Source: Torpedo marmorata
Taxonomy: Eukaryota
Length of the DNA: 64,000 nucleotides
Reading direction: 5' to 3'
NCBI GenBank assembly: GCA_977017645.1
Contig: OZ360223.1
Coordinates: 80,662,001 to 80,726,000, forward strand
Below the pieces are notes generated by a model. The model was not told the origin of the DNA. It searched no databases and worked only from the letters and a program-made list of their open reading frames with translations. The position numbers and the translations under genes are program-made. This document shows positions 6,973 to 36,704 of the stretch, in pieces; the stretch's first letter is position 1; every line of letters begins with the position of its first letter.

Positions 6973-8330
6973 TTCCACAGGGGTCAGTGTTGGGGCCGCT
7001 TCTTTTTATGTTGTATATTAATGATTTAGATTATGCAATGAATGACTTTATGGCCAAGTTTGAGGATGATACAAAGGTAGGTGGAGGAGCAGATTGTGTT
7101 GAGGAAACACAGAGGCTGCATAAGAACTTAGACAGATTTGGAGAATGGGCAGAGAAGTGGCTAATGAAATGTAATGTCAGAAAGTATACGGTCATGCACT
7201 TTGGTAGAAAAAAAATAAACAGGCAGACTATTTTTTTTTAAATGTGAAGAAAATTGAAAATACCCAGATGTAAAGGGACTTGGGAGTCCTTGTGCAGAAT
7301 AGTCTGAAGGTAAATTTGCATGTTCAGAAAGTGAAGGCGGCAAATGCAATGTTGGCATTCATTTCGAGAGGAATAGAATACAAGATCCAGGATGTGATGT
7401 TGAGGCTTTAAAGAACACTGGTAAGACCCCACCTGCAGTATTGTGATCAGTTTTGGGCTCCTCAATTAAGCAAATATGTGCTGAAGTTGGAGAGGGTTTA
7501 AAGGAGGTTTACTGGGATGATTCCAGGAATGAAAGGGTTATCATACGAGAAGCGTTTGACAGCTCTTGGCCTGTATTCGTTGGAATTTAGGAAAATAAGT
7601 GGGGGGGGGATGTCATTGAAACATTTCGAATGTTGAAAGGCATCGACAGAGTTAATGTAGAAAGGTTGTTTCCCCATGGTCGTAGAGTCTGGGACAAGAG
7701 GGCACAACTTCAGGATTGAAGGGCATCCACTGAGAACAGAAATGCGTAGGAATTTCTTCAGCCTGAGGGTGGTAAAACTGGAATTTGTTGCCACAGGCGG
7801 TTGTGGTGGCCGAGTCATTGGCTTTATTTAAGACAGAGATTGATAGGTTCTTGATTAGCCAGGGCATCAAAGGTTATGGGGAGAAGGCCAGGCAGTGGGG
7901 CTGAATGGGAAAATGGATCAGCTCATGATTACATGGCAGGGCAGACTCGATGGGCTGAAGAACCTATTTCTTCTCCTATGTCTTATGGTCTCATTAGTTA
8001 CTGCTTAGAGAGATGACAACAAAACGTTGAGACATTGAATACATTATATTATGACTTAAATAGGAAATTTACAAAGCAACTGGCAGTATTTGCTCATTAA
8101 AGTAAAACTGGCTTAATAATAATCTTAAGGTACTGACAAGTGAAGTTCAATGCAAACAAACTGCAACCTATTGATAGGCCTATCAATAAACACTCAAAGA
8201 CTGTGAGCGTGAGTGAAGCATAGGCTTTTATTACCTTAGAACTGTGCAGTAGTTTCCTGCAGATCTGACCCGGACTGAGGGAGTGGCCGTGGCACAGTGG
8301 CCTTTATTCAGGTGAGGAAAGGGGAGGGAT

Positions 8331-11300
8331 GTATAATTCCAGAGAAAGAAAAAACTGTATATAACTGGAGATTAGACTCTTCTTTATTAAATAGAAAAGA
8401 TTTCTGTGAATATATAAGAAAAGAAATTCAGGAATTTTTAAGAATTAATAATAATTCAGTTGAAGATAAGTTTATAATTTGGGAATCTTTAAAAGCATAT
8501 TTAAGAGGATTGATAATAAGCTTCTCGGCAAAAATCAGAAAAGATTATGTGAAAGAAGAAGAAAAACTGGAGGGAGAAATTGAAGTTATGGAAAAAGATT
8601 TTCAAAGAAATAAAACAATTTTCAAAAGACAACGTTTAATTGGGAAAAAATTACATTATAATATATTACAAACTCGAAAAATAGAAAAATTAATTGGTAG
8701 AACAAAGCAAAGATATTATGAATTGGGAGAAAGAGCACATAAAGTTTTAGCATGGCAATTAAAGAAAGAACAAGTTTCTAAAACTATAAATGCTATAAAG
8801 AAAAGTACTGGAGAAATAACTTATAAACCTCAAGAAATAAATAATTCATTGAAAGAGTATTATCAAAATTTATATACTTCGCAAATGAATCAAGATGTTG
8901 TAAAAATTGATGATATTTTAGCCAAAATTACATTGCCCAAATTAAATAGTTTTAACAGAGATTTGTTAGATTTACCAATTACAATGAGAGAAGTAGGTGA
9001 GGCTTTATTATCATTGAATAGTGGTAAATCTCCCGGTGATGATGGATTTCCGGTAGAGTTTTATAAGAAGTTTAAAGATTTATTGATACCTATATATATG
9101 GAAGTATTAACTCAAATAAAGGAAACTCATTCATTACCGAAAACATTTTTAAATGCTATTATTACAGTTATACCAAAGAAGGATAGAGATGTATTAAAAA
9201 CTGAATCATATAGGCCTATATCATTGTTAAATGTAGATTATAAATTAATGGCAAAAATCTTGACAAATAGATTAGCTAAATTTTTACCATTTTTAATACA
9301 TCCAGATCAAGCAGGATTTATCAAAAATAGATATTCAAAGGATAATATAGCAAGATTAATAAGTTTGATTAATTTACAAAAAAAGAAACAGGATTTGCCG
9401 TTAGTGATAGCATTAGATGCAGAAAAAGCATTTGATAGACTAGAATGGAAGTTTTTATTTAAGGTTTTAGAGAAATATGGATTTGGAAATACGTTTATAA
9501 ACTGGATTAAGACTATATATAAGGAACCTACAGCCAGAGTAATTACAAATGGTCAAATATCATCTAAATTCTCTTTGACGCGGTCAACAAGACAAGGATG
9601 TCCATTGTCACCTGCTTTATTTGTATTGGCAATAGAACCGTTGGCGGAAATGATTAGGAAAGATATTAATATAAATGGGATAAAAGTAGGTGTAGAAGAG
9701 CATAAAATTAGTTTGTTTGCAGATGATGTATTAATATATATGACAAAGTCTATTAAATCACTTCAACAATTAGATAAAATATTAAGGGATTATGGTGAAA
9801 TATCTGGATATAAAATTAATTCGGATAAAAGTGAGATAATGGCTTTATCTCAAGGAGACTATACTAAATGTAAAGAAGTTACAAAATTTAAATGGGCTAA
9901 AGAAGCTATTAAATATTTGGGAGTTAAAGTGGATACAAAGTTAGAAAATTTATATAAATTAAATTATATACCTTTATTTCAGAAAATAAAGAAGGATTTG
10001 GATAATTGGAAAGATTTACCCATAACTTTAATGGGAAGAGTGAATTGTATTAAAATGAATATTTTTCCAAGAGTTCAATATCTTTTTCAATCTATACCTT
10101 TTGGTATTCCTCAAAAATTTTTTAAAGATTTAAAAATTATTATTAGAAAGTTTTTATGGAAAGGAAAATTGGCAAGAGTAAGTATGGATAAATTAACTTG
10201 GGAATACGAAATGGGTGGATTACAACTCCCTAATTTTCAATATTATTATAAGGCAGCACAATTAAAATTTATAAATGAACTATTTGATTTAACTAAAAAT
10301 ACGGCTTGGATTAATATAGAATTGAGTAATATAGGAGAAAGAAATAAGGAAGATATTATTTATAAATGGAATTCTAAATTATTATTGATTAAAAAGAAAA
10401 AGTCACCGATTATTAAACATTTATTGGAAATTTGGAATCAATTAGATAATGAAATAGGACGAAAAGGATTAATTTCTTTAAATATGCCATTATATCAGAA
10501 TTTATTATTACCATTTTCTATTGATAATCAATTTTTAAAATTATGGTATCAAAAAGGAATTAAGAAGATCAAAGATTGTTTTGAGGCAGGAAGATTTGTT
10601 ACTTTTTCTAGATTGAAAGAAAAATTTGGTATAATGGATAATACAATTTTGGCTTATTATCAAGTTAAAGGATTTTTAGTTGAGAAATTAGGGAATCAAT
10701 TATTATCCCCTAGACAAGATGGGTTAGAGTTATTAATTACTAATGGAAATGTTAACAAATTTATATCGCAAATGTATAAATTACTTCAGAAAAAAATGCT
10801 TAAAGTAGGACTACATAGATCTAGATTAAATTGGGAATCAGATCTAAATACTAGTATAGATGAAAAACACTGGAAAGAACTATGTAAACTGAGTATGACT
10901 AAGATTATTAATGTTAGATATAGATTAGTACAATATAATTTTTTTCATCAATTATATATAACACCTAAAAAATTAAAGAAATTCAATTCGGCATTGTCAG
11001 ATATGTGTTTTAGATGTAAAGATGAAATAGGTTCTTTTGTACATTGTACATGGTCGTGTTTGAAAATTAAAAATTTTTGGTCTAAAGTCAAGGATTTTTT
11101 AGATAGAATTCTTAATATTAAGATTCCAATGGACCCTATGATATTTCTGTTTGGAGATATTTAAAAAATTAGTATTAGAAATAGATTGAACATGTATCAA
11201 ATAGAATTTTTACGAATTGTGTTAGCAATTTCAAAAAAATGTATTGCTATTACTTGGAAATCAGACTTAGATTTAAATTTGGATAGATTACATGCAGAGT

Positions 11301-11407
11301 TACGCTCGTGTATACCATTGGAAAAAATTACATATAATTTACGAGATAAATATCATTTCTTTCTGAAAATCTGGAGCCCATACATGAGAATTATGGGTAT
11401 GAATTAA
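8331..11407 (+). pseudogene. L1 ORF2 (RT and C-terminal CCHC; endonuclease lost by truncation; one frameshift near 11160)
   Basis: KSPGDDG, YRPISLLNVDYK, LDAEKAFDR, TRQGCPLSP, LFADD, CFRC-x8-HCTWSC motifs. Confidence 0.92.
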
Positions 11408-11713
11408 TTCTCTAGAAGTTAGTACCGCTGACAAAGTAACCTCCAATATATAAGTAGAGTTAGCTTGAAATAATTTTCTCCTCACACTAACACTAACTTT
11501 CTTAACTTTATTATTCAATCTATTTCTTTTCTTTTAACTAACATTTTTATATTCTATTTTTTCTTTTTTATTAGATAGCTTGGGAGGGTTGGGAAGGGGA
11601 GGGTGGGAAGGGGGGGTGGTAATATATCACATGTATTTTCAATAATACATTATTTTTTTGATATATGTATTTTGTGATTTTAAAAAATTAAATAAAATTA
11701 TAAAAAAAAAAAA
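8331..11713 (+). mobile_element. 5'-truncated L1 LINE inserted in the G1 3' LTR
   Basis: 16-bp TSD AGGAAAGGGGAGGGAT (8315-8330, 11714-11729); poly(A) tail; AATAAA near 11691; G-rich tract 11582-11619 in the 3' UTR. Confidence 0.95.
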
Positions 11714-12000
11714 AGGAAAGGGGAGGGATTACCTGGACACCCAAGGGAGGGGAGGGAGTAGACATCGGGACAGCCTGCAGTACATACCTACACCACAATA
11801 CATAAACAGTGGTTTACCACATTCACCCCTCCTTTTTTTTTAAAAAAAAGAGTCCAGCGGGGTGACGTGACCACTCTAATTAAGTTACAGAAAACACACA
11901 GTAAATATAATACAGAAATATATGTACAAGCCCTTTTTCACAGGTCAAGGCGATCCGGCGGTCGAATTTGCCGCTGTGACCTGCGTAGTGGCGGGGCGGG

Positions 12001-14526
12001 TTATGGTGATGGGGGAGATGGTAGGGTTGTCTGTGCAGTCGCCTCCTGCCTGGCCTCTTGGAATGTCTGTGGTCCCGGCGAGGGGGCTGGGTCTGGCACA
12101 CTGGGTGGGGAATTAGAGGGGTTTTGCAGCACGTGGTAATTAGAGGGGGTTTGCAGCAGGTGGTCTTGCCCGTCGGAATGTTCTACCGGTGCCCCAGCGG
12201 GCGCCAGATCCCGAATCGAGACAGTGTCCTCTCGCCCATCAGGGAAGACCACGTACGCATATTGTGGGTTGGCGTGCGCCAACTGCACCCTCTGAACTGT
12301 CGGCTCATATTTGCTGCTCCGGAGGTGATTGCGGAGCAGCACTGGTCCCGGGGACGTCAGCCAGGCAGGTAGGGCGGTTCCGGTGGTCGACTTCCTGGGG
12401 AAGGAAAAAAATCGTTCATGAGGGGTTGCGTTGGTGGATGTGCACAGCAGGGACCGGATAGAGTGGAGGGCTTCGGGGAGAACCTCCTGCCAGCGGGAAA
12501 CCGGCCATCCCTTGGACTTGAGAGCCAGGAGTGCGGCCTTCCATACAGTAGCATTCTCCCTTTCCACCTGTCCATTCCCCCGGAGGTTGTATCCGGTGGT
12601 CCTGCTAGTGGCGATGCCTCGGGCCTGCAGGTACCGTCGCAGCTCCTTACTCATAAAAGCTGCTCCCCGATCGCTATGTATGTAGTTTGGGAAACCAAAC
12701 AGCGCGAATACCTGGTGGAGAGCTTTTATGGTTGAGGTAGCCGAAGTGTCGGGGCAGGGGATGGCAAAGGGGAACCGCGAGTACTCATCGATAATGGTTA
12801 AGAAGTACACGTTGCGGTTCGTGGAGGGAAGGGGCCCCTTGAAGTCAATACTAAGACGTTCAAAAGGGCGAGTGGCTTTGATCAGCTGTGCCCTGTCGGG
12901 GCGGTAGAACTGAGGTTTGCACTCCGCGCAAACCCGGCAACCTCTGATCAATGTCCTGACCTCTTCCAGGGAGTATGGCAGGTTCTGTGACTTCACAAAG
13001 TGAAAGAGCCTGGTAATCCCTGGGTGGCAGAGGGCGTCGTGTAGGGCATGTAATCGGTCGATCTGCGCGCTGGCGCATGATCCCCAGGATAGAGCGTCCG
13101 AGGGCTCATTGAGCTTCCCGGGCCGGTAAAGGATGTCATAATCGTAGGTGGAGAGTTCTATTCTCCACCTCATGATCTTGTCATTTTTGATCTTACCCCG
13201 CTGCTGGTTGTTGAACATAAATGCCACCGAGCGTTGGTCGGTCAGCAGGGTAAAATGCTTGCTGGCGAGATAGTGCCTCCAGTGCCTGATTGCTTCCACT
13301 ATGGCCTGGGCTTCTTTCTCTACCGCGGAGTGCCGAATTTCGGGGCCTTGAAGGGTCCGTGAGAAAAACGCCACCGGCCTTCCCGCCTGGTTGAGGGTAG
13401 CAGCCAGCGCGAAGTCCGATGCGTCGCTCTCTACCTGAAAAGGTATCTCCTCATCCACCGCGTGCATTGTTGCTCGAGCAATGTCCCCTTTTATAAGGTC
13501 AAAGGCCTTACGTGCCTCCGAATCAAGGGGAAATGCGGTGGATTTCACCAGGGGTCGGGCCTTATCAGCATAATTGGGAACCCACTGTGCATAATATGAG
13601 AAGAACCCGAGGCATCGTTTGAGTGCTTTGGGTGTGGAGGGAAGGGGAAGTTCCAGCAGGGGCCGCATGCGGTCGGGGTCGGGTCCAATCACCCCGTTCT
13701 CTACCACATACCCCAAAATAGCGAGGCGGGTGGTACCGAACACACATTTTTCTTTATTATATGTCAGGTTTAGTGCTTTGGCCGCCTGCAGGAACCTCCG
13801 GAGGTTGTTGTCGTGGTCCTGACGATCCAGACCACAGATGGTAATATCGTCCAGGTACGGGAAAGTGGCCTTAAGTTTATAGTGGTCCACAATCCTGTCC
13901 ATCTCCTGCTGAAATACAGAAACTCCATTAGTTACCCCGAAAGGAACACGCAGGAAATGGAACAGCCTACCATCTGCCTCGAACGCAGTGTACGGTCGGT
14001 CCTCCCTTCGGATAGGGAGCTGGTGGTATGCGGATTTCAGGTCTATGGTGGAAAAGCACCTGTATTGGGCGATCTGATTAACAGTATCCGCTATTCGTGG
14101 TAGTGGATAAGCGTCCAACTGTGTGAATCGATTAATCGTCTGACTGTAATCCACCACCATCCTACTCTTGGCCCCTTTTACTACGACTACCTGGGCCCTC
14201 CAGGGACTATTACTCCTCTCAATAATCCCCTCCTGTAATAATCTCTGCACCTCCGTCTTGATAAACGCCCTGTCCCCCGAACTGTATCGCCTGCTCTTGG
14301 TTGCCACAGGCTTACAGTCAGGGGTCAGGTTAGCGAATAGCGACGGGGGCGAGATCTTAAGAGTGGAGAGGCCACAGGTAGTCTGGGGCGTGTTATTAAG
14401 GAACTGGTGGTTTGCTACAGTGATCGCAGGGTGGGGACCGTCATAAAGCATAGTGACACTCTGTAAGTGGCTCTGAAAATCAAGTCCTAATAACACAGGT
14501 GCACACAACCGATTCATAATAAACAA
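12001..14526 (-). CDS. G1 pol: RT, RNase H, integrase (open frame, disconnected from gag-pro by a frameshift near 14530)
   Basis: DLKSAYHQ, VPFGVTNG, YLDD, ESDASD, HHCC zinc finger (HDALCHPG...CRVC), DFKGP, HSDRG, GQVER. Confidence 0.92.
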   Translation of the reverse strand: MFIMNRLCAPVLLGLDFQSHLQSVTMLYDGPHPAITVANHQFLNNTPQTTCGLSTLKISPPSLFANLTPDCKPVATKSRRYSSGDRAFIKTEVQRLLQEGIIERSNSPWRAQVVVVKGAKSRMVVDYSQTINRFTQLDAYPLPRIADTVNQIAQYRCFSTIDLKSAYHQLPIRREDRPYTAFEADGRLFHFLRVPFGVTNGVSVFQQEMDRIVDHYKLKATFPYLDDITICGLDRQDHDNNLRRFLQAAKALNLTYNKEKCVFGTTRLAILGYVVENGVIGPDPDRMRPLLELPLPSTPKALKRCLGFFSYYAQWVPNYADKARPLVKSTAFPLDSEARKAFDLIKGDIARATMHAVDEEIPFQVESDASDFALAATLNQAGRPVAFFSRTLQGPEIRHSAVEKEAQAIVEAIRHWRHYLASKHFTLLTDQRSVAFMFNNQQRGKIKNDKIMRWRIELSTYDYDILYRPGKLNEPSDALSWGSCASAQIDRLHALHDALCHPGITRLFHFVKSQNLPYSLEEVRTLIRGCRVCAECKPQFYRPDRAQLIKATRPFERLSIDFKGPLPSTNRNVYFLTIIDEYSRFPFAIPCPDTSATSTIKALHQVFALFGFPNYIHSDRGAAFMSKELRRYLQARGIATSRTTGYNLRGNGQVERENATVWKAALLALKSKGWPVSRWQEVLPEALHSIRSLLCTSTNATPHERFFSFPRKSTTGTALPAWLTSPGPVLLRNHLRSSKYEPTVQRVQLAHANPQYAYVVFPDGREDTVSIRDLAPAGAPVEHSDGQDHLLQTPSNYHVLQNPSNSPPSVPDPAPSPGPQTFQEARQEATAQTTLPSPPSP

Positions 14527-14532
14527 AGAAAA

Positions 14533-15825
14533 TTATCGATACTCAGTTCCTTGTACCACAATATTTGCCACACAAGCCCCCTGGATGTCTGTTGTGTGTG
14601 CCCCAGACGCCATGGCCACCCTCTGGCTTACCGGTATGGTAGTGAGGCCACAGCGCTGGACAGTGTCCGGGTGGATGAAGCTCTCCGTACTGCCTGTATC
14701 GAAGAGGCAGGTGGTTTTGTGCCCCTCCACCAGGATGTCCATCATGGATCTCGATAGCTGGTGAGGAACACTTTGGTCAAGGGTGACTGATGCAAGGGTT
14801 GAGATGTAGTCCTCTTGATCCTCTGCCGTTGTTAAAGATGGCCGCTCCCGTGGATCACACGTGTCGCTGCTGCTCGCGCTGCAAGATGGCGGCGGTAGTA
14901 AAGCCGGAAGTACAGACGCGGACGGTGGCGCCGGAAGTGCCAGCATCAAAGATGGCCGCCTCCATTCTTCGCACGAGTTCGCCGCCGGAAGTGCCCGCAT
15001 CAAAGATGGCCGCCCCCGCAGCTTGCACGCGGCGCTGCTCGGACCCGGGCGCGACTTGGAGCGGCAGGCCTTCACGTAATGGCCTTTCTTGCCGCAGCCG
15101 GAACAAGTCGCGTCGCGGGCCGGGCAGCGTTTCCTCTGATGTTTATCGAGCCCGCAGAAGTAACACTTCTCGGGCTCGCGGTTAACGGCAGCGGCGGTGA
15201 GGATCGCGGTAGCGATCGGATCGTTACAAACGGCGGCGGCAGTCAGCTCGTTGGCAGGGCTGGGGGATGGGGATGACCACGCTGCGGGCTGGGGGTCGCG
15301 CCCCTGCATGGCGTCGGAGTTCCGCAGCGCGGACTCCAGCGTGTGGACCATTGCTACCGCCCCACGAAAGTCCAGGTTGGCGTGCTCCAGCAGCCTCTGG
15401 CGCACATATACCGACCTGATCCCCATGATGAACGCGTCTCTCTCCACCACTCCAACGTGTTCCTCAGCGGTAAGGGCTTTACAGTCGCACGCTTGTGCCA
15501 GCGACTGTATGTCCCTGACGTATTCCACGGTCGACTCCCCGGCTCGCTGCTTTCGCGAAAAGAGTCTGTACCTCGCGTTGACAGGCGTCAGGTAGATCCT
15601 TTTCAGCTAATCCATCGCCTCCGTGTAGGTTCTACAGTCTCTCACCGTTGTGAATACCCGAGAGCTCACCCTGGACACGAGGACTCTCAGTTGCTGCTCC
15701 TCGCTTTCGGCTTTGATGGTGATCATAAAAGACTCTAGACATCGTAGCCAGTGCTTGAAAGAGTTACTGGCATCAGGAGCTAGGTGATCGATGTCCAGGC
15801 GGTCCGGTCTTAGTGCTCCTTCCAT
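14533..15825 (-). pseudogene. G1 gag-protease (in-frame stop at 15607)
   Basis: ATG at 15825; two CCHC knuckles (CYFCGLDKHQRKRC, CSGCGKKGHYVKAC); protease LFDTGS. Confidence 0.9.
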
Positions 15826-16439
15826 CAGATTTTACTAAGGTAATAAAATTGATAGGCCTATCAATAAACACTCAAAGACTGTGAGCGTGAGTGAAGCATA
15901 GGCTTTTATTACCTTAGAACTGTGCAGTAGTTACCTGCAGATCTGACCCGGACTGAGGGAGTGGCCGTGGCACAGTGGCCTTTATTCAGGTGAGGAAAGG
16001 GGAGGGATTACCTGGACACCCAAGGGAGGGGAGGGAGTAGACATCGGGACAGCCTGCAGTACATACCTACACCACAATACATAAACAGTGGTTTACCACA
16101 CTTATATACAAAATAAATTGGTATATGCACTGTATGGATGGTTAGCGGGTGAAAAGTTGAACGATTACTCAGTTGCCAAATATTATATCCAAACAAACTG
16201 ATAAAATGTATTAAAAATATATGCCAATCCTCATGTGCAGAGGTTGAACTGTACAGTGATCAGGTGAAACAATTACGTTAGCATATCATTTCAGAGTTTT
16301 GTGGAGTCAAGCCTAAGACTGACCCTTCATGTTACCAGTAATTCAGTGTGAGAAATGACTGGATAATCTTTGATCTTCCTAATTAAAGAGAGATACGTCA
16401 GATTTGATTTTATGGGAGTATGAGGTAATTAACAAGGGA

Positions 16440-20696: not shown

Positions 20697-23600
20697 TATT
20701 ACGGTGACTTCGATCCAACAATAGTCACCTGGAGGCTAAGTGAGATACTTGTCTTTGACGCGTTTTAATTAATTTACTAACAAAGTCCAATATGTTCAAA
20801 AACCTTTATTTACACACGTGACTTGCAGTAATCTTCAATGACTTTAATATAAACAGTTCTTGTAAACGATGTATGAAGTGTTCCTTTAAATGATTCTTTA
20901 AACAATTCCAAAACAATATGAAACACTGTAAAATGATGTTAAACGATATAAAAACGGTCAATAAAGATGTGGAGACCTCACTCACCCTACAAACATCTTA
21001 TTCCTTTCCTTTTCTCTCTCTCTATCCTTGATTTGCGCATGCCCATTAGCTCCTAAACCACTGCGCATCCTACCCCGCGCATACTACATTTCCCAGACTG
21101 CAACGCGCACAATGACGTCACTCCACACTGCGCATGCGCCCGTCGGCACTCCCGCGCATGCGCAGAGCAAAGAACGGGCCGACGACGGCCTACAGAACAA
21201 CGCGAGCGCTCCAAGGCCCGACGAGACTTCGGAGCGCCGCAACAACGGTAAGTTAATGAGCCTACGGCTCTTACACCGGCCCCTAATTATTATAATTAGA
21301 CGTAATGTCTTGAATAATAATTACACTATAAATTATAAATAACAATAACCATAACATTCAAAACAATACAAATCTTCTTTCTTCCTTCTTCTTAAATCTA
21401 GAGTTTACCATAACTCTGATTCAACAAAAGTCTGTAACCTGTGAAATATACAACAACAAATAAAGTCAGTTTATATTTATCAAAGTTCCTCTGTCTCCAA
21501 CAAAAGACAGACCTTGTTAATAGGTCTGCTTCGAAAAACCAGTCTTAGTTTTAATTCACACTTGACGCACAAGTCCTCTTTTGTCTTGAAAAGTCTCAAT
21601 AATTTTTCCAAGTAACCAGGAGTTTCTTGAAGTTGAATTATCCATAATAATCACAATGTCTCTTTAAAGTTCTTTTATCTTCATAATCTGAGTTAAAACG
21701 TCAACCAGTAAACCTCAAATCTTCCTCAGATAAAATAGATACAGTTTTTCTTTTGAATTTAACACAAGGCACTTCTTCAGCATGTCGTTTCACTTTATTC
21801 CTTTTTTCAGTATTCCACTTTTCATGTGAAGAATTTAAACTCTTAGAATTAGAATTTGAATATTTATCTGATCCTTTCGATTTTAAACAGGTCTGTTTAA
21901 CCACTCTGGTTTCTATTGCTCTTTCCTGCAATTCTAAATCCAATTTTGCAACTTTCAATTCAGTCTCAGTTCTTTCTGAGAAATTAATAATTTGATCTGA
22001 AGTCAAAATATCATGTGATACATTGATATTTCCATTGTCAATCCTGTTGCGACAAACTTGAAATTTTTTAATTTCTTCATCTTGTTTGTTACATTTCTGC
22101 AATGCAATATCACATTCTTTCTGCATTGGTAATTGTTGAACATTCAATTTACATTCTTGATTGGTTTTTAAAGTCAACTGTTTTGTGTTATTAACCAATA
22201 ACTTGTTCTCTTTCAAAACATTAATCTCTTCCTCCAACCTTTTACATTTTGATAATGCTGAATCTCTTTCCTCAATAACTGTATTCATTTCTTCAGCAGT
22301 TATTTTTTTCTTCCGCTTTCTGACTTTGCGAGTTTTACTTACAATTAAATCTTTCTGTTTACTGTTTTCTTGATTATCTAATATTTCCAATTCCCCTTTC
22401 AACATTTTGTTCTCTGAATTCAATTGCATTAAATTATCATTCACATTATTCTTTATTCCATCAGCACAATTTTCTGTGTTCTCCAGTTTTACATCACATT
22501 GTAATCTTTCTTCATTAGCTTTGTCTGTTATAATCTCTGAACTACAAAATCTACATTCAGATTTGTTTTCAGTCACTTGTTTTATTCCTGTATTTGATTC
22601 AATTACACATGAATAATCAATAGTATTATTTGCAATATCTTCTAATACTTCACTTTCATCCATTTCTGATAAAATTAATTCCTTCAATGTTGTTTTAAAT
22701 ACCCTTGATTTATTTTCACATTGATCTGTTTTCTTTTCTTCAAAAGTGATTTTCTTATTCAGTTTTTTGCTCTTCGCTTAACTCTTCAACTTTCTCAACC
22801 GAAATTCTATTAATATTTATCGCTACCTGTTCCTGAGCAATATCATTATTTCTTTCCATTGGTCCATTGATTGTCCAACCAAGCATGGTTTTAACAGCAT
22901 AAGGTCCATTCCTTTTACTCTCTATTACTTCTTTTGGTACCAAAATCTTTGGCACATCTGAACCAATCAGCATTTCTATCTCAGAATTAATTTCAGGTAA
23001 ATAAACCTTCCACAGATAAGCTAAATGATGGATATCCCTTTGATGAGGAATATTTCCTTCATTCACAGGCATAGTCTTCTGAGTATATACACTTGGAAGA
23101 TCACAAAATTTTTTGTCATCCAATCCAGCAACCTCTAAGCCTGAAACAATGTTAGTTTCAACAACCTTTTCTTGTCCCATGGTTTTTAACATAATTCTTG
23201 ATCTTTTTCCTTGAATATTAAGTTTATTCATTAGTCCTTCCGTGCAAAAAGATGCAGTGCTGCCTGGGTCTAGAAATGCATATGTTTTTACTATTGCATC
23301 CCCTTTCTTGGCCTTGACTTGTACAGGCACTATTGAAAGTTTGCAGTTATTCACCCCGGCCCCAGTAAGACCACTTGTCTGAACCGAGGTTATAACATTA
23401 TTTTCTGTTGTTTCCTTTGTTTCTGTTTGCTCCTTTTCCAATTCCTTGTTTCTGTTATGGATATGCAAAATTCTAGGATGTTTCAAATTGCATATGTTAC
23501 AATTAATTCGCTTCTCGCAGTTTTTACTGATGTGCCCTTTACACAGACAGCTAAAACATATTCCATTTTCCTTTAAGAAAGCGATCTTTTCCTTATGTTC

Positions 23601-26600
23601 CTTCTTTTCCAATCGTAAACACATTTCCAAAGTATGTCCACCTTTACAGAACAAACAACTCTTTTCATTAGGCAAACTTTTCTTTTCCTTATTTACTTTG
23701 TCATTTTCTTTACTTATAACTTGCACATTAGTAGCAAAAGTACTCCTTTTCACTTTCGGACTAAACTGTGTGTTAGACTTCTTTACATCTTTGCCCATTG
23801 AATTATCTCTGGTATTTCCATATAGTGGATCTGTTTCAACATACACCTGTCGTTCAAGAAAATTTACCAAGGTAATTTTTCGACCGTAATTTACTTGTAA
23901 ATCACAAGCCAAATTTCTCCATCTATCCCATACCTTGTAAGGTAATTTTTCTAAAATGATTCGCATATTACTATGCACATCAAGCTCACGAATACTATCG
24001 ATTTCTTCCATAGCATTACAACATCCTCTTAAAAACAGAGTAAACTCTTGCAGAGCCTTTACATCATTTTGTTTTATTGATGTCCATTTAAGAGCTTTAT
24101 CCATATAAGCTAAAGCAATTCAATGCTTGTTGCCAAAATATTGTTCCAATAAAGCCTTAGCTTTGTCTAATCCTCTTCCTGAAGACATTTGTTTACAACT
24201 TTTTACCAGTTCTTTTGGATGTCCCTTTGTGAACATTTCCAAATAATAAAGACATTCATCACGATCTTGGCATTTATCTTCAATATTGCGTTTGAAAGAT
24301 CTCATAAATGATTGATATTGAAGTGGATCACCATCAAAAGTTTGTATCTCTTTCTTGGGTAAAGAAGAGAGAGACTGTAACTGAAACAATGATGCAGCAA
24401 TTTCATTTTGTCTTTCCTTGGACGACAATACATTGCTCTGTTCACCGTCTCTTGTTGCATGCAATGTATCTGGAAACCTCACTGGTGTAGTTTCTTCCAT
24501 ATTTCTGATGTTTGACTCAAATAACAAAGAAGTTGCTTCGTTCGACCAAACCCAAGCCGCAGCTTTGCTTTCAGATGTTATCATTGGTACATGTGACTCG
24601 ATACCAATATGCTCTTGAAAGGTTTGTCCTTGTATATGTAAGTTTTGTATCCTTGGTTCTAAAATATCTATCCTTTTGATTGGTTTCTTTTCCTGTGATT
24701 CCTTTTTTAAATATGACCTTTTATTATCGGACAATTTAGATAATTTACTGCTAACACCAGATACCATTGAGCCTTTTATTGCTTTCTATTCTGCCTTGGC
24801 AATAGCAATGTTTGCTTCTAGCTCCTGCTGTTCTTTTCTCTGCCTAAGCTGCTCCTTCTCTTGTCTTAGCTGCTCCATTAGCTGCTTCTCATTTTGTCTT
24901 AGCTGCTCCTTTAGCTGTTTCTCATTTTGTCTTAGCTGCTCCTCCTCTTGTCTTAGCTGCTCCTTTAGCTGCTCCTCTTTGTCTTAGCTGCTCCTTTACC
25001 TGCTCCTCCTTTTGTTTTAGCTGCTCCTTTAGCTGCTCCTCCTTTTGTCTTAGCTGCTCCTTTACCTGCTCCCCCTTTTGTCTTAGCTGCTCCTCCTCTT
25101 CTTCCAAAATATACTTATCCTTAAGCGTTTTTTGTTGTGCAAGAAGAGCGGCCAATTTAACATCAACCTTTGTACGTGACGATGCAGAACTTGAAGTACG
25201 AGAAACTCTGGAGCTCGAACCAGAACTTCTTTTGCTTCTCCTGCTTTCAGCATTTGAGACACTGTCACTTGCTTGTATTTCGTCCTGCAGTTCATATGTT
25301 GTCTTCATACTTACCTCTTTATCCAATTCGAATTGTATATCCTTTGCATCTTCAACCACTTTAATTTCTTCATCATTTGTTGACACAATTTCAGCCATTT
25401 CCAAGTTATCTTCTTGTTCAACTAATGAAGCTGCCTCTTCATCCTTTGCCAGCTTCAATCTTTCGATAAGAGCCCTTTTATTTCCACTTATGTCCTTTTT
25501 CAGTCGCTTCAATTCTTCTTTAATATCCGAAACCTTCATGTCTTCAATACGTTGGTCCTCAACAGCAACATCAGCGGTTGCTGCGTCAGCTGCTGATATA
25601 TCAGTAGCTGCTGTATCAGTGGCTGCTGCGGCCATTTTACTCGTCTTGTTCCTCTTTCCTTCAAGCATACACAACACTAGCCAAATCAACAGTCCCCAAT
25701 GGACCAGCGGCAGCAATTCCAATCTGTGTTCTTACTTGCTAAAGATACACAGAAGGAGTCCACAGACTTATGCCTACCACTTCAAATGACTGTAATGTGC
25801 TGCAATCCACAAACGAGTTTCAACCACAACATCCGTCACTAATATCACTGATTTTCCAAAAATGGTTTCTCCAACGTATTTATAGGACACTTTACTATAA
25901 GATTTGAAGCTTTAAATCCCTCTCTGGCTGTTACTCATGGCAGATGGATGTGGATTACAAACTGCCCCCAACTCGAGGCATCTCCAAGATGGCCACCATT
26001 TTATATCAGTCCCAAGCACAGAGAGTTTTTTCTATCTTCTTTCTTTCAAACTTCTGTTCCAAACAGCCAGCTCTTTATTGACTATATTACGGTGACTTCG
26101 ATCCAACAATAGTCACCTGGAGGCTAAGTGAGATACTTGTCTTTGACGCGTTTTAATTAATTTACTAACAAAGTCCAATATGTTCAAAAACCTTTATTTA
26201 CACACGTGACTTGCAGTAATCTTCAATGACTTTAATATAAACAGTTCTTGAAATGATGTATGAAGTGTTCCTTTAAATGATTCTTTAAACAATTCCAAAA
26301 CAATATGAAACACTGTAAAATGATGTTAAACGATATAAAAACGGTCAATAAAGATGTGGAGAACTCACTCACCCTACAAACATCTTATTCCTTTCCTTTT
26401 CTCTCTCTCTATCCTTGATTTGCGCATGCCCATTAGCTCCTAAACCACTGCGCATCCTACCCCGCGCATACTACATTTCCCAGACTGCAACGCGCACAAT
26501 GACGTCACTCCACACTGTGCATGCGCCCGTCGGCACTCCCGCGCATGCGCAGAGCAAAGAACGGGCCGACGACGGCCTACAGAACAACGCGATTGCTCCA

Positions 26601-26722
26601 TGGCCCGACGTGGCCTCGGAGCGCTCCGAGGACGGCCTACAGAACAACGCGAGCGCTCCAAGGCCCGACGAGACATCGGAGCGCCGCAACAACGGTAAGT
26701 TAATGAGCCTACGGCTCTTACA
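20697..26722 (-). mobile_element. Non-autonomous BEL/Pao LTR element, copy 1 (3' LTR 20697-21275, 5' LTR 26083-26722), inserted in a CR1 3' fragment
   Basis: Paired LTRs, 5-bp TSD GTCCC, PPT-like AGGGGCCGG before the 3' LTR; CR1 sequence continues across 20540-20696 and 26723-26900. Confidence 0.92.
21701..25635 (-). pseudogene. BEL copy 1 Gag-protease-tail ORF, disrupted
   Basis: Same protein as copies 2 and 3, with stops (about 24788, 24120) and frameshifts (about 24960, 22760). Confidence 0.88.
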
Positions 26723-28220
26723 GTCCCTATAGAATCCACCTCCACCAGCATTGCCGGCAACTCATTCCACGCACCCACCACTCTCTGCGTAAAAAACGTA
26801 CCTCTGACATTTCCAGCATACCTTCTTCCCAACACCTTAAACCTGTGTCCCCTTGCAGCAACCATTTCGGCCCTGGGAAAAAGCCTCTGACTGTCTACCA
26901 TTCTCAGAGCGCGTCCTGGAATGGTTTGTTGGGTACAGACCCCTGCATATGTAAAATCTAGAGGATGAACTGCGACAGATGCATTTCATTCCTTTTGGGA
27001 TTCTCCATTAAACTGTTATTATTGACCTGTTAATGCATTCTTCCTGAGGACCCATTTGGGCTCACTGGAATTTTGAGGCATAAATAATTTCAAGGCCAAT
27101 TTTAGTGATCTCAATTGCCCATCATGTAAAGACCAGGTTGGCTTCACTGCTTAAGAAAAATTTAGCCCATTAAAAAAAGTAGCACGTTTTTCAAGAGTAC
27201 ACAACCACATAGTTCTGACTTTAAGATTCCTGTTCAGATACTGTAATTGGCTGCTAGCTCCGAAACAGAGCAGGCTAGAGGAAGAAACCATTTCACAAAT
27301 GGAACCACAATGCAAGAAACATTTGAGTACAAAAGGGACAAAGTATAAAAGGGATGTCAACTGATTGAAAATGTGTTTCTAGATACAAAAGAACTTGAGA
27401 TACAAGAGATGTGCAAAACTGTACAGTTCATCAAGATAGGCTGCCTTAGATATGGTAGTGTGCATGAGTGGGTAAGAAATGTAGAAGAACATTCTAAAGT
27501 AATTCTAAATGTGGAGACATTTCAAATATTACTTGTCACCAAATAAATGCTTAATTAATTGCAATCAAATACCAGCAATGGTATGAAAAGGTAGCAACTT
27601 TATATATGGAATGAGAGTATGGGAAGTCAACCTTTACCAATTTATTGTGAACCCATATCTAGAAGTTAAACTACAACTTGCTTAGCAGGTTCAAAATTAG
27701 CACAATATTTATCAGACTGGAATCTTGGAATAAAAAAAACAGAAAAAGGTGGCCAGCAGCCTCTGTGGAATGAGAAAAAGTTAATGTTACAAGCTGAAGA
27801 CCCTTCGTCACAACGGGAATCAATGCACAAGACAACTTAGAAAAATCTTAATGTGCAGAGTAAACATTTTCCATCAATTTAAACATATCAAAGCAACAAT
27901 TTATCATCTTATTGCAATAGGCAATCAACTCTGATTAAATATACAGAAGTTGCAGTTTATAATACCAGGTTATGTCGTAAACCACTGTATATATGTTTGT
28001 GGTTGTCTGGACACGCCCCTTACTGACTGTTCCTGTGGCTCCTCCCACAGACCCCTGAATAAAGGCTATTGTGCCACAGCTCCCTCCCCAGTCCAGGACA
28101 GACGACCACCAGGAATGTGCATCCATTCCGATGTAAATAAAAGCCTATCAGTTCCTGCATAACTTCTAGTCTTTCGGAGTTATTGATGGTGCATCAATTT
28201 TATTTACATCGCTTTCAATA

Positions 28221-31200
28221 ATGGATCAGTACCTGATACCTGAAAAGTTGGAGCTCGACCCTCAATCACCCGAGGCATCCAACGGTTTCGAACACTGTCT
28301 GCGTTGTTTTGAGGCATTCTTGAGGGCCTCTGCTACTGTCGTTCAATCTGAGGAAGACAAATTGCAAATACTACATTCCCGGGTCGGGCCCCGGGTGTAC
28401 TCGATGATCAGGGATGCTGAGTCTTACCAGGAGGCCTTGGACACGCTGAGAGCCAGTACCTGAAGAAGGTAAATGAAGTCTATGCAAGACATCTCCTGGC
28501 TACCCGAAAGCAGCGACCCAGGGAATCGAGCGACGAGTACCTACGGGCCCTGCAAACCCTCGGACCTCATAAGAGACGCCTATGTCGCCGGTATCCGATC
28601 AAATTAAATAAGGCAGAGACTGTTGGAGCAAAGTGAGCTTAACTTGCAGAAGGCAGTGGACCAAGCGGGCACGCTAGAAGTGGCCTTCCAAAATATGGAT
28701 GCGTACTCTGCCGATAACGCCGCCGCATCGTGGTTACCGAAGGCGTTGCCATCTTGAGATGCGGAGGGCCGCAAGCCTGTGGAACACCGCCACGTTCCAT
28801 TAGCGACTCGACAACGGCCGCTATGCTCCACGATCAGCCGAAGTGCTAATTCTGCGGCCTGGATAAGCACCGCCGGAAACGCTGCCTGGCGAAAGACGCG
28901 GTCTGCGCAAGCTGCGGGAAGAAGGGGCACTACGCAAAATCTGCAAGTCCAAACCGCCCTCCAGACCCAGCAGCTCCGCATGCGAGAAAGGGGCGTCGCC
29001 ATCTTGGGTGCCTCAATCTTCCCAACTCAGCAGCGCCGCGTGCAAAACATGGGGGCCGCCGTCTTGGATGGCGCTATCTTGGACAGACCGAACTCCCGAA
29101 CACCGCATCACCCCTACAGAACCCGACAGCGACTCAGTACTGGCCTCCATCACGCTGGATCAAGGGACACCCCATCAACTGGCCAGATCAATGATGGACA
29201 TGGAGGTGGACGGCAACAAGATGATCTGCCTTTTCGATAGTGGGAGCACGGAGAGCTTTATACACCCCGACTCGGTACAGCGTTACACCTCGCGGTAATG
29301 CCGGTAAGCCACAAAGTCTCCAAGGCTTCCAAGTCCCACACAGCAGAGATCCGCAGTTACTGTGTAGTGACCCTGACTGTGCTGGGCACAGAGTATAAAC
29401 CTTTTAAATTACTAGTCATGTCACAGCTCTGTGCGGACGTGCTACTGGGGCTAGACTTCCAATGTCACCTTAAAAGCATGACGTTGGAGTACGATGGGCC
29501 CCATCCCAGCCCTCACCATCTGAAATCCGAAGTTTGTAAACCGCCCACCGCAACTCACCCACAGAAGCTCCCTGGCCTCCCCTCCCACCGCGTCCAGCCA
29601 GCAACCCACTGATCGCTCATGACCTGCGGCCTTTCTACCCTCCGGATCATACCCCCCAACATTATTCACTAACCTTACCCCCGACTGCAAACCCTTGGCT
29701 ACCAAAAGTAGGTGATACAGTGCCGGGGACAGGGCCTTTATCAGGTCGGAGGTGCAGCAGCTATTGAAGGAGGGGATCATTGAAGCCAGCACCAGCCCCT
29801 GGAGAGCCCAAGTTGTGGTGGTAAAGAATGGGGAGAAAAACAGGATGGTCATCGATTATAGTCAGACCATCAACCGGTAAACGCAGCTGGACGCGTACCC
29901 TCTCACGCACATAGCCGACATGGTGAAACAAATCGCCCAATATCGGGTATTCTCCACCATTGATTTAAAGTCGGCATACCACCAACTCCCCATCCGCCCG
30001 GAGGACCGCCAATACACTGCCTTCGAGGCAGATGGCCGCCTCTATCATTTTCTGAGGGTTCCCTTTGGTGTCACCAACGGGGTCTCGGTCTTCCAGCAGG
30101 AGATGGACCGAATGGTTGACCAGCATGGGCTGCAGGCCACATTCCCATATCTGGATAACATCACCATTTGCGGCTATGACCTACAGGATCATGAAGCCAA
30201 CCTCCAAAAATTCCTCCAGACCACCAAGCTCCTCAACCTTACTTATAATAAGGATAAATGCGTCTTTGGCACAACACGCCTGGCCATCCTTGGCTGCGTC
30301 GTACAGGACGGAGTAATTGGCCCAGATCCAGACCACATGCGCCCCCTGTTGAAACTCCCCCTCCCCCACAGCCTCAAAGCCCTGAAAAGGTGCCTGGGCT
30401 TTTTCTCCTATTATGCCCAGTGGGTCCCCTATTATGCCCAGTGGGTCCCCAATTATGCCCAGTGGGTCCCCAATTATGCCCAGTGGGTCCCCAATTATGC
30501 CCAGTGGGTCCCCAATTATGCGGACAAGGTCCGCCCCCTCATCAAATCCACCTCTTTTCCCCTGACGTCAGAGGCCCATGCGGCCTTCAGCTGCATCAAG
30601 GCAGACATCGCCAAAGCTGCGATGCACGCTGTGGACGAAACCACCCTGTTCCAGGTGGAGAGCGATGCGTCCGACTTCGCCCTGGCTGCCACCCTCAACC
30701 AAGCGGGCAGACCCGTAGCTTTTTTTTCCCGCACCCTCCAGGGCCCAGAAATTTGACACTCCTCTGTCGAGAAAGAGGCCCAAGCCATTGTCGAGGCGGT
30801 ACGACACTGGAGGCATTACCTTGCCGGAAAACGATTCACCTTGCTAACTGACCAACGTTCAGTTGCGTTTATGTTCAATAACCAACAGCGAGGTAAAATT
30901 AAGAATGACAAGATTCTGAGGTGGAGAACCGAACTTTCCACCTACAATTACGATATCTTGTACCGGCCCGGTAAATTCAATGAGCCCCCAGATGCCCTAT
31001 CCCGTGGAACATGTGCCAGCGCACAAGTAGGCCGCCTACAAGCCCTCCACAGTGACCGCTGCCACCCCAGGGTCACCAGATTCTTCCATTCCATAAATGC
31101 CCGCAACCTACCTTACTCCATCGAGGAGGTCAGGACCATAACCAGGAACTGCCAGATCTGTGCGGAGTGCAAACCGCACTTCTATCAACCAGACAGAACG

Positions 31201-32150
31201 CACCTGATAAAAGCCACCCTCCCCTTCGAACACCTGAGCGTCAATTTCAAGGGACCCTTCCCCTCCTCTGACCACAATGTGTACTTCCTCAACATTATTG
31301 ACGAGTACTCACGTTTCCAGTTCGCCATCCCCTGCCCGGACATGACCACGGCCACAGTCATCAAGGTTCAATGCAACCTCTTCACACTGTTCGGGTACCC
31401 CTGCTATTTTCATAGCGACCGGAGGTCCTCTTTTATGAGCGACAAGCTGCGTCAGTACCTGCCGGCCAGAGGCATCGCCACGAGTAGGACCACCAGTTAT
31501 AACCCCTGAGGGAATAGGCAGGTGGAGAGGGAGAACGCTACCATTTGGAAGGCCACCCTCCTAGCCCTAAGGTCGAGAGGTCTTCCAGTCTTCCACTGGC
31601 GAGAGGTACTCCCTGAGGCATTCCATTCAATCAGATCACTCTTGTGCACAGCCACCAATGCCACTCCACATGAGAGAATGTTTTCCTTTCCGAGGAAGTC
31701 TGCTTCAGGGACCACGCTGCCATCCTGGCTGACGTCCCCAGGGCCGGTCCCACTCCGGAGGCATGCGAGGAGCCATAAGCATGACCCACTGGTCAAAGGG
31801 TCCATATCCTCCACGCCAACCCCTAATACGCCTACGTGACGTATCCTGATGGGCGGGAGGACAGTGTCTCCGTTCGTGTCCTGGCGCCCTCAGGCGTCCC
31901 TGACACCACTGCCGACTACCCTGCCCCCCCCTCCTCACCCACTGCCACCCACGATGCATCGTTGCTATGGCAAGTGACTCCAACTCCGGGGGGAGGTTTG
32001 CCAGATCCTTCGCCGCCATGCATCCACCAAGACAGAGCCGACAACAACACACAGGTGGTACACTCAGGACTGGATGCAACAGCTGCGCCGCAGCCGGTAC
32101 TACGACGGTCACAGCGGCAGACCAGACCACCTGAAAGACTGAATCTGTGA
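28221..32150 (+). pseudogene. G2 gag-pol with multiple stops and frameshifts
   Basis: MDQYLIPEKLELDP gag start; LFDSGS protease; DLKSAYHQ, YLDN and ESDASD motifs; integrase HHCC and core fragments. Confidence 0.9.
30412..30521 (+). repeat. 21-bp tandem repeat x5 inside G2 pol (YAQWVPN)
   Basis: TATGCCCAGTGGGTCCCCAAT repeated five times; G1 has one copy of the motif. Confidence 0.95.
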
Positions 32151-32181
32151 GAACTTTAATTCACTTCACCCCGCAGAACTC

Positions 32182-32213
<32 letters not shown>

Positions 32214-34149
32214 GGATGGGTGAATGGTAAACCAGTGTATAACTATATATGTGTTTGTGGTCGTCTGGACACGCCCCTTACTGGCTATACCTGTGGCTCC
32301 TCCCACAGACCTCTGAATAAAGGCAATTGTGCCACAGCTCCCTCCCCAGTCCAGGACAGACGACCACCAGGAATGTGCATCCATTCCAATATAAATAAAA
32401 GCCTATCATATCCTGCATAACTTCTGGTCTTTCGGAGTTATTGATGGTGCATCAGGTTACAAGCTGTGTAAATAGATCATTTATCTGGAAGAAATAAAAT
32501 CTTTTAACCATTTAAACAACTCAAGTTTCAGTAATACCCTTCAGCGGAGCTTGTCGCACCAATGTGGTTAGGCCAACACGCAGATCCATTCCAAAATTTA
32601 AAAGTTAATTCAATGCAGCACAGCAATTCATTCGGAACATGCACAACATTCATTCAAATACCTTCTCAGAACTATTCACACCACCTTATCAGCAATGCTT
32701 CTCGACAAAGGACATGTTTTTCTAGATGATTGAAAAAAAGTCACCTTCCTAAATTCTTCATTTACTTCATATCCATTTCAATGATGAATCAAGCAAGATC
32801 TAGCATTTCCTCTTTTGCCCCTTTTCGTACGTCAACAGTGCCCTGCAATCAATATCCATCAAGTTGTGTGCAATAACTTCCACTTTGTTTTTCGATTAAA
32901 TGCTCAATTATAATTAGTGCTCCAGGCAAATGATAATTTTAAACAACTTTCTTTTTGTACCACTGGCACCTTATTATCAGCAAGTAACCAGCCTTCGGCC
33001 CCATCCATGGAAGAATCTACAATTTCCACATTGGCCTCATTAGTCACCTCAGACCCCACCAAACTGCAATGGAAGAAAGTAATCCTTGACCCAAAGGAAC
33101 TGCCAAAGAATATGATATTTAATTATGAAAGCACATTGTATTCATAATTAGCCTGAGAATTGGGCAATGCAGTCCTAACACCAGACAAATGATAAATAAA
33201 ATTAATGTCCCTGATTTTGGATACGTGACTTCATTTTGATTTTTTTTGGTATTTCAAACACTGGACTTGGTTATCATAATTCTTAGTTTTTATAATCTTA
33301 ATGATTTTGTATGCATCAAAAGTATTTTTCCTCCCAAGGTAAAAACCGCCATTTAATTGATTCACTTTAAAAAAAAAAGGAACATTCAATTTTCCCAACC
33401 AAGAACACATTTAAATAGAGTCAACATGTTATTCAGTGTCAATTATTTTGCAGTCAACAGCAGAAACAATTGTGAATTTTGTTCAAAATTATTAAAGTGC
33501 CCATATCAAGGTGACAAAATCTTCAGGAAGAGTAAAATCTGCATGATTTGTGAAATAAAAACATTGTAACCATGCAAGCTTTGCTACAATGCCACTTTGG
33601 AGTTGTGCCCAATTTTGCTTTCCCATGCGTAAAGAGCAACAAACAAAAGATTACTCCATCTTCATGCTCTCAAGGCCAAGGAATCAGGGTCATTTTCATG
33701 AGAGAATTAGAAATTAGACTTGGAGGCAATTATATTGAGACTGCTAAAATCTTGCAGGATGTATCATGCAGAGCTGGATGGGTTTAGGGAATCAAACATC
33801 AGTTATAAGATATTGTCACAAGAGTAAGATTTAGATGAGATGTTGGTAGATACTACCAACAAGTTTATCATGCTGCAGATGCATGAAAAAGATCAACTTC
33901 AAACTCCAGTTTCTCCCCACATCAAAGATGTTTCGGTTGGTTTGTGAATTGGCCACTGTGCATTCACTTGAGTGCATTAGAGAATCTTGTGGGTAGTGCC
34001 AGGATAGTGGGGAAAGAGCAGGCAGGAACAGGGAGAATGCAATGGGATGAGGGTTAATAGGTGCTGGATATTCAGCATACTCAGTAGACCAAAGGGTCTG
34101 ATCTTGTGCAATATAACTCTTGAACTCTAATTCATCAAATGTTCAAGAT

Positions 34150-35828: not shown

Positions 35829-36704
35829 GAATAGAGAACCAGAAAGTGGTAGAGTGGTAGTGGAGGGTTATAATTAACGGTGACTTCGCTCCACCAATAG
35901 TCACCTGGAGGCTAAGTGTGGTCCTTGCTTTTGACGCGTTTTAATTAATTTACTAACAAAGTCCAATATGTTCAAAACCTTTATTTTCACACATGACTTG
36001 CAGTAATCTTCAATGACTTTAATATGAACAGTTCTTGTAAACGATGTATGATGAGTTCCTTTAAATTATTCCTTAAACAATTCCAAAACGATATGAAACA
36101 CTGTAGATGATGTTAAAGTTATAAAAACATTATAAAACGATATAAAACGGTCAATAAAGATGTGGAGACCAGACTCACCCTCCTACATCTCTATCCTTTC
36201 TTTGTTCTCTCTCTCTAATGGCTCTGCGCATCCTACCCCGCGCATACTACAACTCCCAGCCTCCCACGCGCACAATGACGTCACTCCATACTGCGCATGC
36301 GCCCGTCGGCACTCCCGCGCATGCGCATATCAAAGAACGGGCCAACGACGGGCCACAGAACAACGCAAGCGCTCCAAGGCCCGACGTGGCCTCGGAGCGC
36401 TCCGAGGACGGCCTGGCGAACAACGCGAGCGCTCCAAGGACCGACCAGACATCGGAGCGCCGCAACAACGGTAAGTTAAACGAGCCTACGGCTTTACACC
36501 GGCCCCTAATTATTATAATTAGACGCAATGTCTTGAATAATAATTACACTATAAATTATAAATAACAATAACCATAATATTCAAAACAATACAAATCTTC
36601 TTTCTTCCTTTTTCATAAATCTAGAGTTTACCATAACTCTGATTCAACAAAAGTCTGTAACCTGTGAAATATACAACAACAAATAAAGTCAGTTTATATT
36701 TATC

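Follow-up and report, generated by a model that had tools for sequence, protein, structure and literature searches.

The window analysed here, a stretch of 64,000 nucleotides of Torpedo marmorata DNA, carries two LTR retrotransposons, G1 and G2, in both of which the Pfam domain order is protease, reverse transcriptase, RNase H and integrase (PR-RT-RNase H-IN). G1 lies on the minus strand. Its 5' LTR (15850..16100), delimited by self-BLAST against the split 3' LTR and by reading of the ends, is 251 bp long and runs from TG to CA. In the sense direction it contains AATAAA(GG) at 15981..15986, 32 nt 5' of the A (15954) of a conserved CAGT at 15952..15955. We take these two motifs to be a TATA-like element and an initiator; the first may have a promoter role and the second is a candidate transcription start, placed from the pile-up of aberrant copy ends at the corresponding point in sister families. 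Further downstream is a 14-nucleotide segment that includes AATAAA (15904..15917), here called the partner, which is complementary to the leader, covaries with it and is the putative 3' segment of a self-primer whose 3' end would fall at 15904. The bases that follow, GCCTAT (15898..15903), are placed by folds and the host alignment at the opening of a second helix, which begins at an invariant RCC and would stack on the primer end; its predicted 3' strand is ATAGGC (15856..15861), within a palindromic LTR end. A 1-nt spacer, A (15849), separates the LTR from the leader segment at 15835..15848, the complement of the partner and the putative primer-binding site (PBS) for the self-primer. The LTR end and spacer (15846-15864) also form an 18-nt perfect palindrome with a GGCC centre, possibly a hairpin alternative to the second helix and a candidate dimerisation signal; in families of the G2 type the palindrome at the LTR end is imperfect.

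The gag-pol region of G1 (12001..15825, from open reading frames and Pfam) encodes PR, RT, RNase H and IN but no chromodomain, and is broken by in-frame stops at 15607-15609 and 14533-14535. A polypurine tract followed by AA (11822..11841, from reading of the sequence) lies 5' of the 3' LTR, which has been split in two by an inserted reverse-transcriptase element. The first part (11714..11821) is 100% identical to 15993-16100 and the second (8172..8330), with an identical partner 14-mer inside, 99.4% identical to 15850-16008. The insert itself (8331-11713) has 28% GC, a 961-aa frame with RVT_1 as its only domain, a poly(A) tail and a flanking duplication of about 15 bp; it is probably a 5'-truncated non-LTR retrotransposon.

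G2 lies on the plus strand and is flanked by a 5-bp target duplication, GGTTA. Its 5' LTR (27973..28196) carries a TATA-like AATAAA (28058-28063) and a CAGT (28089-28092), assigned by reading of the sequence and from spacing statistics in the host (together 28058..28092), and then the partner, again a putative self-primer 3' segment (28129..28142). The spacer A (28197) and the putative PBS (28198-28211) follow the LTR. The gag-pol region (28221..32160, from open reading frames and Pfam) is split over several frames, and its RT part includes a tandem repeat of about six copies of a 21-bp unit (30383-30550). The 3' LTR (32225..32454) is 94% identical to the 5' LTR, and its copy of the partner (32387-32400) has two differences from the 5' copy and matches the leader imperfectly.

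The duplex at the G1 and G2 junctions is real. The reverse complement of plus 15904-15917 is found in the G1 leader at plus 15835-15848, and that of 28129-28142 in the G2 leader at 28198-28211, exactly as originally predicted in both coordinates and letters. Neither 5' LTR is followed by TGG, again as foreseen, and both leaders begin 1 nt (A) past an LTR end reading ...ATCA, a boundary fixed by comparison with the 3' LTR. The partner ends 54 nt before the LTR end in both elements. At the composition of the window, a 250-nt LTR would contain the complement of a given 14-mer with a chance of about 3e-6. The original prediction went further, stating that the seven positions outside AATAAAA all differ between G1 and G2 with pairing intact; the pairing is indeed exact in both, but only four of the seven positions differ.

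The host genome provides a much larger sample. A junction pattern that does not touch the duplex has 28,491 matches genome-wide against 72 in a control, and a pattern with both hexamers fixed has 9,040 against none. We analysed the first 100 of the 28,491 matches, in which the duplex had been left free, and dropped four that have no element leader (L173, L213, L234 and L236). L224, with a 1-nt deletion, was retained in the pairing statistics and left out of trees; 30 loci from a pattern fixing AATAAAA/TTTTATT were kept out of the statistics. The spacer is A in 96/96 junctions, no TGG occurs within 0-5 nt of the LTR in any of the 96, and the four bases past the partner are G in 93, C in 95, C in 95 and T in 96. 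The fixed core is the junction A|RCC together with the LTR end CA, one nucleotide and a T. A 5-bp target duplication is present in 43 of 71 scored copies. At the loci L095 and L333, respectively, the LTR end plus primer site and part of the primer site are tandem-duplicated in the leader.

Watson-Crick pairs are found in 89-96 of the 96 junctions at positions 1-13, in 74 at position 14 and in 10 at position 15. Pairing is perfect over all 14 positions in 51/96 and extends to at least 13 pairs in 85/96, and G-U accounts for 4/576 cells at positions 8-13. There are 21 distinct perfect 14-mers in the sample, and Watson-Crick covariation, extensive in this genome, recurs across 21 distant families. 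Covariation also holds among the collected family members: over positions 8-14, 59 distinct pairs are 0.893 paired, versus 0.468 with shuffled partners (maximum 0.562 in 2000 shuffles), and all copies together are 0.92 paired in register versus 0.23-0.31 when slid by 1-3 nt. Not every host copy pairs fully: several subfamilies have a stable mismatch at positions 13-14 (4 + 4 copies), and another mismatch, at position 8, is recurrent (2 copies).

An RT tree was built from 81 of the 95 copies, the other 14 having too little RT. On it, one Watson-Crick pair is exchanged for a different one 51 times, including 11 and 12 times at positions 8 and 9. RT third codon positions on the same tree undergo a mean of 5.15 single changes, with a 90th percentile of 9. 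Recombination between subfamilies may inflate the switch count. Compensatory switches at the neutral rate of single changes, with no wobble intermediates, suggest that one strand is copied from the other, in preference to selection acting alone. The stable mismatches at positions 13-14 and the recurrent one at position 8 indicate that rewriting of the primer site is incomplete.

A second trace of copying comes from aberrant copies. In L048 and L059 the leader is complementary to the LTR beyond position 14, and genome-wide there are 87 copies, of many 14-mer types and counted without the G1-type families, in which the leader continues from position 15 as inverted LTR sequence. These copies, together with the neutral rate of the switches, argue that the site is re-templated from the primer. 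The reciprocal event, in which the leader spacer overwrites the LTR, was recognized by eye in five, at most eight, of 32 matches. Two LTRs 3.4 kb apart (G000:C45:73064448 and C45:73067846), which probably belong to one element, both show the reciprocal overwrite, placing that event before or during reverse transcription.

End points were analysed by eye for 60 of the 87 copies, 27 being left out. Of 40 read to 116 nt, 27 reach the edge and 13 stop earlier; of the 20 followed beyond that, 12 stop precisely where the LTR begins, two fall just short of it and six end early. Measured upstream from the cut, the 18 independent early ends are at 21, 21, 23, 31, 35, 37, 38, 48, 50, 52, 53, 54, 54, 54, 55, 61, 66 and 102 nt. 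Six of them fall at 52-55 nt, at CAGT (p of 6e-5 for this fixed window and 0.004 for any window); microhomology shapes end points, and two of the six share one 9-nt acceptor. A conserved CAGT is found 32 nt downstream of AATAAAGG in 71 of 95 host junctions. We read the pile-up, with microhomology as a caveat, as the point where reverse transcriptase reaches the 5' end of the RNA and runs off, at a start of the TATA-initiator kind. The host RNA would then begin about 51-53 nt upstream of the cut, with the paired segment about 40 nt inside it, a placement that the data suggest weakly; another candidate for the start is an RTT motif lying 17-18 nt upstream of the cut. Such a long unpaired 5' part is not universal, as some distant LTRs (L139 and L091) have less than 50 nt upstream of the cut. 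Searches for processed poly(A)-tailed copies, used as a proxy for the poly(A) site, gave two places with one pattern and one place with another.

RNA folding is consistent with a structured junction. The 5' regions of G1 and G2 fold with z = -4.6 and -3.0, respectively, and form the duplex in both cases, while the G1 3' LTR with its host flank forms no duplex (z = 0.05). When all 28 host types were folded the duplex had a probability of 0.92-0.99 and was mostly extended by the second helix from GCCT. The G1 and G2 folds also show a third helix, linking the RNA 5' end and the gag AUG; it was rejected, as permuted pairs bind about as well as cognate ones (-6.22 versus -6.30 kcal/mol, 1450 of 5000), although a conserved UCC/GGA remains in that region. 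Minimum-energy folds under a pseudoknot-free model gave no duplex between the PBS 3' flank and U5, and Rfam returned no match at E <= 1.

More distant relatives were taken from 69 metagenome loci and nine loci from prokaryote bins, and 21 families with a readable LTR-gag junction were grouped by eye; in the remaining loci that junction is missing. L354, a tandem duplicate of L337, was dropped, and L362, with a 13-bp match of ambiguous geometry, was left out of the count. In 21/21 families there is a 1-nt purine spacer and a duplex of 11-18 bp, with one mismatch or G-U in three (L111, L126 and L129). RCC lies directly past the partner in 20/21 and usually opens a hairpin, RCCT...AGGY. Clade members in records labelled as bacterial genome bins (L362-L370, P0011 and P0070) presumably represent host contamination; no relatives were found in viral contigs. 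One clade member, L085:1-93, is a contig beginning ...TTACA, A, TGG with a candidate LTR end, and may be a tRNA-primed exception. The closest named protein relatives come from rays and a catshark (72-83% identity), followed by sea anemone, mussel, nematode and damselfly (56-62%), a pattern that by itself points to a cartilaginous fish as the probable host.

The elements have the features of Ty3/Gypsy: PR-RT-RNase H-IN between LTRs, a polypurine tract and a 5-bp target duplication, with Ty3 Pol as the best solved relative. A chromodomain was found neither in G1 by Pfam, nor in precomputed domains of 120 homologues, nor in ten that were rescanned. The RT tree, whose outgroups are sequences that we take to be Mag-like (from a motif) and Gmr1-like and which includes no chromovirus, places the host and distant duplex-bearing families in one long-stemmed clade (SH-aLRT 99) apart from these outgroups; one Mag-like sequence falls far outside it. 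Against Ty3 RT, G1 scores 182 bits and a Gmr1-like element 263 bits. In the Gmr1 clade the integrase lies upstream of RT. Membership of that clade was rejected, as IN follows RNase H in G1 and the Gmr1-like sequences fall outside the duplex-bearing clade. A PF24626 search for a chromovirus outgroup yielded Gmr1-like elements in the two loci examined among 150 matches; such elements also occur beside clade members and in the host genome (L107:8448-11345, L096, L371 and L372). The Saci2/lennie clade, described in the available text of PMC12471100 as having a 4-bp target duplication and a tRNA-matched PBS, was likewise set aside given the 5-bp duplication and the lack of TGG here. A motif search of the obtainable supplements of PMC8556966, PMC6238403 and PMC12471100 found no sequences by which the clade could be matched to the Mag lineage or to a named mollusc clade such as MolGy1/2, and an atlas of protein clusters contained generic Gag clusters only.

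We consider it likely that the leader is the PBS of a tRNA-independent Gypsy clade that primes itself in cis, and very likely that the primer, whether acting in cis or in trans, derives from the element's own RNA. The proposal of self-priming has good support from the PBS geometry, the covariation and the absence of TGG (0/96), but its stated likeness to the Tf1/sushi group is mechanistic only, given the missing chromodomain and the apparently internal position of the paired segment in this host. The cis mechanism starts from what the sequence shows, namely that the 14 nt located 1 nt past the 5' LTR are exactly complementary to an R-region segment ending at the invariant A|RCC. The predicted fold joins this duplex to a second helix, RCCT...AGGY, beginning at the very next base. 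By analogy with Tf1, RT/RNase H would cut at A|RCC and so place a 3'-OH for minus-strand synthesis into the spacer and U5. The strong-stop DNA would then move to the 3' R sequence between the cut and the poly(A) site, and a partner bearing AATAAA would double as the poly(A) signal in the 3' LTR. Plus-strand synthesis, to judge from the genomic traces, would copy the attached primer, and the primer site would be rewritten from the LTR in each cycle, making compensatory change automatic over about 12-13 nt. If the host RNA does start about 51-53 nt upstream of the cut, which is weakly indicated, the primer would carry a long unpaired 5' part, in contrast to the 11-mer of Tf1.

An alternative that we regard as unlikely is that the primer acts in trans, with short R transcripts from solo LTRs or from early termination in the 5' LTR annealing to the leader and being trimmed to A|RCC while the template stays uncut. 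This would explain the same covariation, copying traces and CAGT end points, and would have the merit of leaving a longer R for strand transfer and an intact genomic 5' end. The recombinant mismatches at position 8 show that primer site and LTR can have different parents, as a trans primer would allow. In L191 and L246 an identical partner mutation is present in both LTRs and the leader is unchanged, a pattern expected if the partner is copied from the 3' LTR of the parent and one that a trans primer fits as well. However, the cis duplex predicted in all 28 types folded would block a primer arriving from elsewhere, and a second helix beginning exactly at RCC fits a cis cleavage substrate, as in the multi-duplex structure of Tf1.

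It is most improbable that the duplex serves mainly to hide the poly(A) signal of the 5' LTR while another RNA primes. AATAAA or ATTAAA lies within the partner in nearly all host copies and in 13/21 distant families (ten directly, and three more as judged from the leader or from a sister copy). Formation of the duplex is confined to the 5' LTR, and TGTA, which we take to represent the UGUA upstream element of poly(A) sites, lies upstream in 52 of 95 host junctions. There is also a precedent in the HIV-1 polyA hairpin (PMC2645353), which likewise holds AAUAAA in a 5'-end helix; in the portion of that report available, however, the hairpin is confined to R-U5, apart from a PBS that a tRNA primes, whereas in the present elements the pairing strand and the primer site are one and the same. 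Against such a role as the conserved core, which the original prediction had offered as an option, eight of the 21 distant families have no hexamer in the partner, yet retain the duplex and A|RCC; their partners end in GTTAAA, TTTAAA, GGTAAA, GTGAAAA or TGAAGA, and in L079 AATAAA sits downstream in U5. Covariation reaches into the hexamer itself (L102 versus L105 and L136, L102 and L105 being one compensated base apart). Hiding of the signal leaves priming unexplained and predicts neither the fixed 1-nt spacer, the sharp edge at position 14, the scarcity of G-U nor compensation at the neutral rate. Because of the hexamer-free families it can be a second role at most, and in hexamer-bearing families occlusion may be such a secondary role.

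Equally hard to credit is an inverted repeat that acts at the DNA stage, in the second strand transfer, the folding of cDNA ends or repeated correction of a quasi-palindrome, and that owes its perfect match to template switching and not to priming. Many of the long aberrant copies can be read as a primer-plus-strong-stop junction joined to a distant internal site, but they could equally represent a U5 loop turned around between the repeats, an outcome that template switching at the DNA level could produce; the exact junction is masked by the 14-bp inverted repeat. A few reciprocal overwrites also exist. The overwrites are nevertheless strongly one-way (87 versus 5-8), no other primer site is present and palindrome repair would not halt after 14 nt in each of the families. 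It is scarcely credible that a host tRNA, a tRNA half or some other small RNA does the priming and that the LTR match is incidental: tRNA halves do prime some Copia lineages (PMC6317226 and PMC10886601, in the parts available) and the host tRNA set was sampled in part (27 distinct genes, seven amino-acid types), but there are more than 40 different leaders, every one of which follows its own LTR, TGG is absent from the 96 junctions and the longest match of 60 leaders to the sampled tRNAs is 5-7 nt.

In Tf1 the RNA's initial 11 bases anneal to the PBS and RNase H cleaves between bases 11 and 12 (PMC7175516), within a multi-duplex 'pretzel' structure around the PBS (10.1101/2022.12.06.519325). 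As far as the accessible text of these two reports goes, the present clade resembles Tf1, Tf2 of Schizosaccharomyces pombe and sushi in having no tRNA site, an LTR complement just past the 5' LTR and a neighbouring U5 helix. The Tf1-type configuration, an LTR complement of at least 10 bp lying 0-5 nt past the 5' LTR with no tRNA PBS, is present here, as are the Ty3/Gypsy domain order and a predicted RNase H cut at the duplex end. Of the three duplexes of the pretzel, modelling recovers the central one and one adjacent helix. The clade differs from Tf1 and sushi in having no chromodomain (G1 and 120 relatives), and from Tf1 in its duplex of about 14 rather than 11 bp, its partner often being the poly(A) hexamer. 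It also differs from Tf1, where the RNA's first bases pair, in that the host partner seemingly lies about 40 nt inside the RNA, and in that the primer site appears to be re-templated from the primer.

Self-primers have also been predicted in the plant Tcn1 (Gypsy) and TAR/Houba/Osr-1 (Copia) lineages, as here, from LTR complementarity of at least 10 bp lying 0-5 nt past the LTR, and TAR is a case of self-priming outside Tf1/sushi (PMC6317226). These are other, plant lineages, and no A|RCC motif or poly(A) overlap is described for them in the available part of that source. The Conserved Hairpin Site of fungal GalEa (PMC5445492) and Dictyostelium Skipper (PMC5006619) share the lack of a tRNA site and a proposal of unconventional priming; according to the available text their structures involve the internal region or no LTR complement and are conserved in sequence, whereas in the present clade the partner belongs to the LTR and the sequence is free to turn over. 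Unconventional priming is mentioned for bivalve TRIMs in the literature available. We found no account of self-priming in a non-chromovirus animal Gypsy clade in the accessible portions of the open full-text literature (including PMC6934838, PMC3601003, PMC6238403 and PMC11042837); subscription journals and Repbase Reports fall outside this scope, and an earlier mention is possible.

A broader proposal, tentative and to our minds somewhat doubtful, is that an animal-wide Gypsy clade, spanning sharks and rays, cnidarians, molluscs, nematodes and insects by its protein relatives, invented self-priming independently of Tf1/sushi. Its primer would come from within R, in many cases being the poly(A) signal itself, and would be freed by a cut at the invariant A|RCC, some 50 nt from the cap; its primer site would be rewritten every cycle. 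To our knowledge, yeast Tf1 is the one element for which self-priming has been demonstrated; the mechanism is regarded as a hallmark of the Tf1/sushi chromoviruses, and a few predictions exist for plants. If the present reading is confirmed, a large, recently active, chromodomain-free animal clade (about 28,000 junction matches in the host genome) primes itself, most likely through a separate invention with its own layout of internal primer, poly(A)-signal overlap and invariant cut motif. The neutral-rate compensation and the failed read-through copies would be rare genomic evidence on whether the sequence of a self-primer passes into the primer site of the progeny. Such elements would possess a self-correcting, tRNA-free replication origin and offer no target for tRNA-fragment silencing, and LTR-annotation tools that require a tRNA PBS would miss or mislabel them. 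The junction is a strongly conserved RNA element and, on comparative grounds, a putative variant form of self-primed reverse transcription that belongs to a separate lineage of animal elements; the RNA involved is short (140-nt) and testable by itself.

The window holds further repeats. Three related minus-strand elements of 5.4 kb with long direct repeats lie at about 20700-26700, 35870-41900 and 59970-64000; SAP and DUF1759 domains occur in one frame, no RT was detected in the two frames scanned, and the elements are possibly related to BEL/Pao. Inverted repeats of 177-nt and 99% identity, 1.9 kb apart at 53402-53578 and 55451-55627, have the appearance of a DNA transposon.
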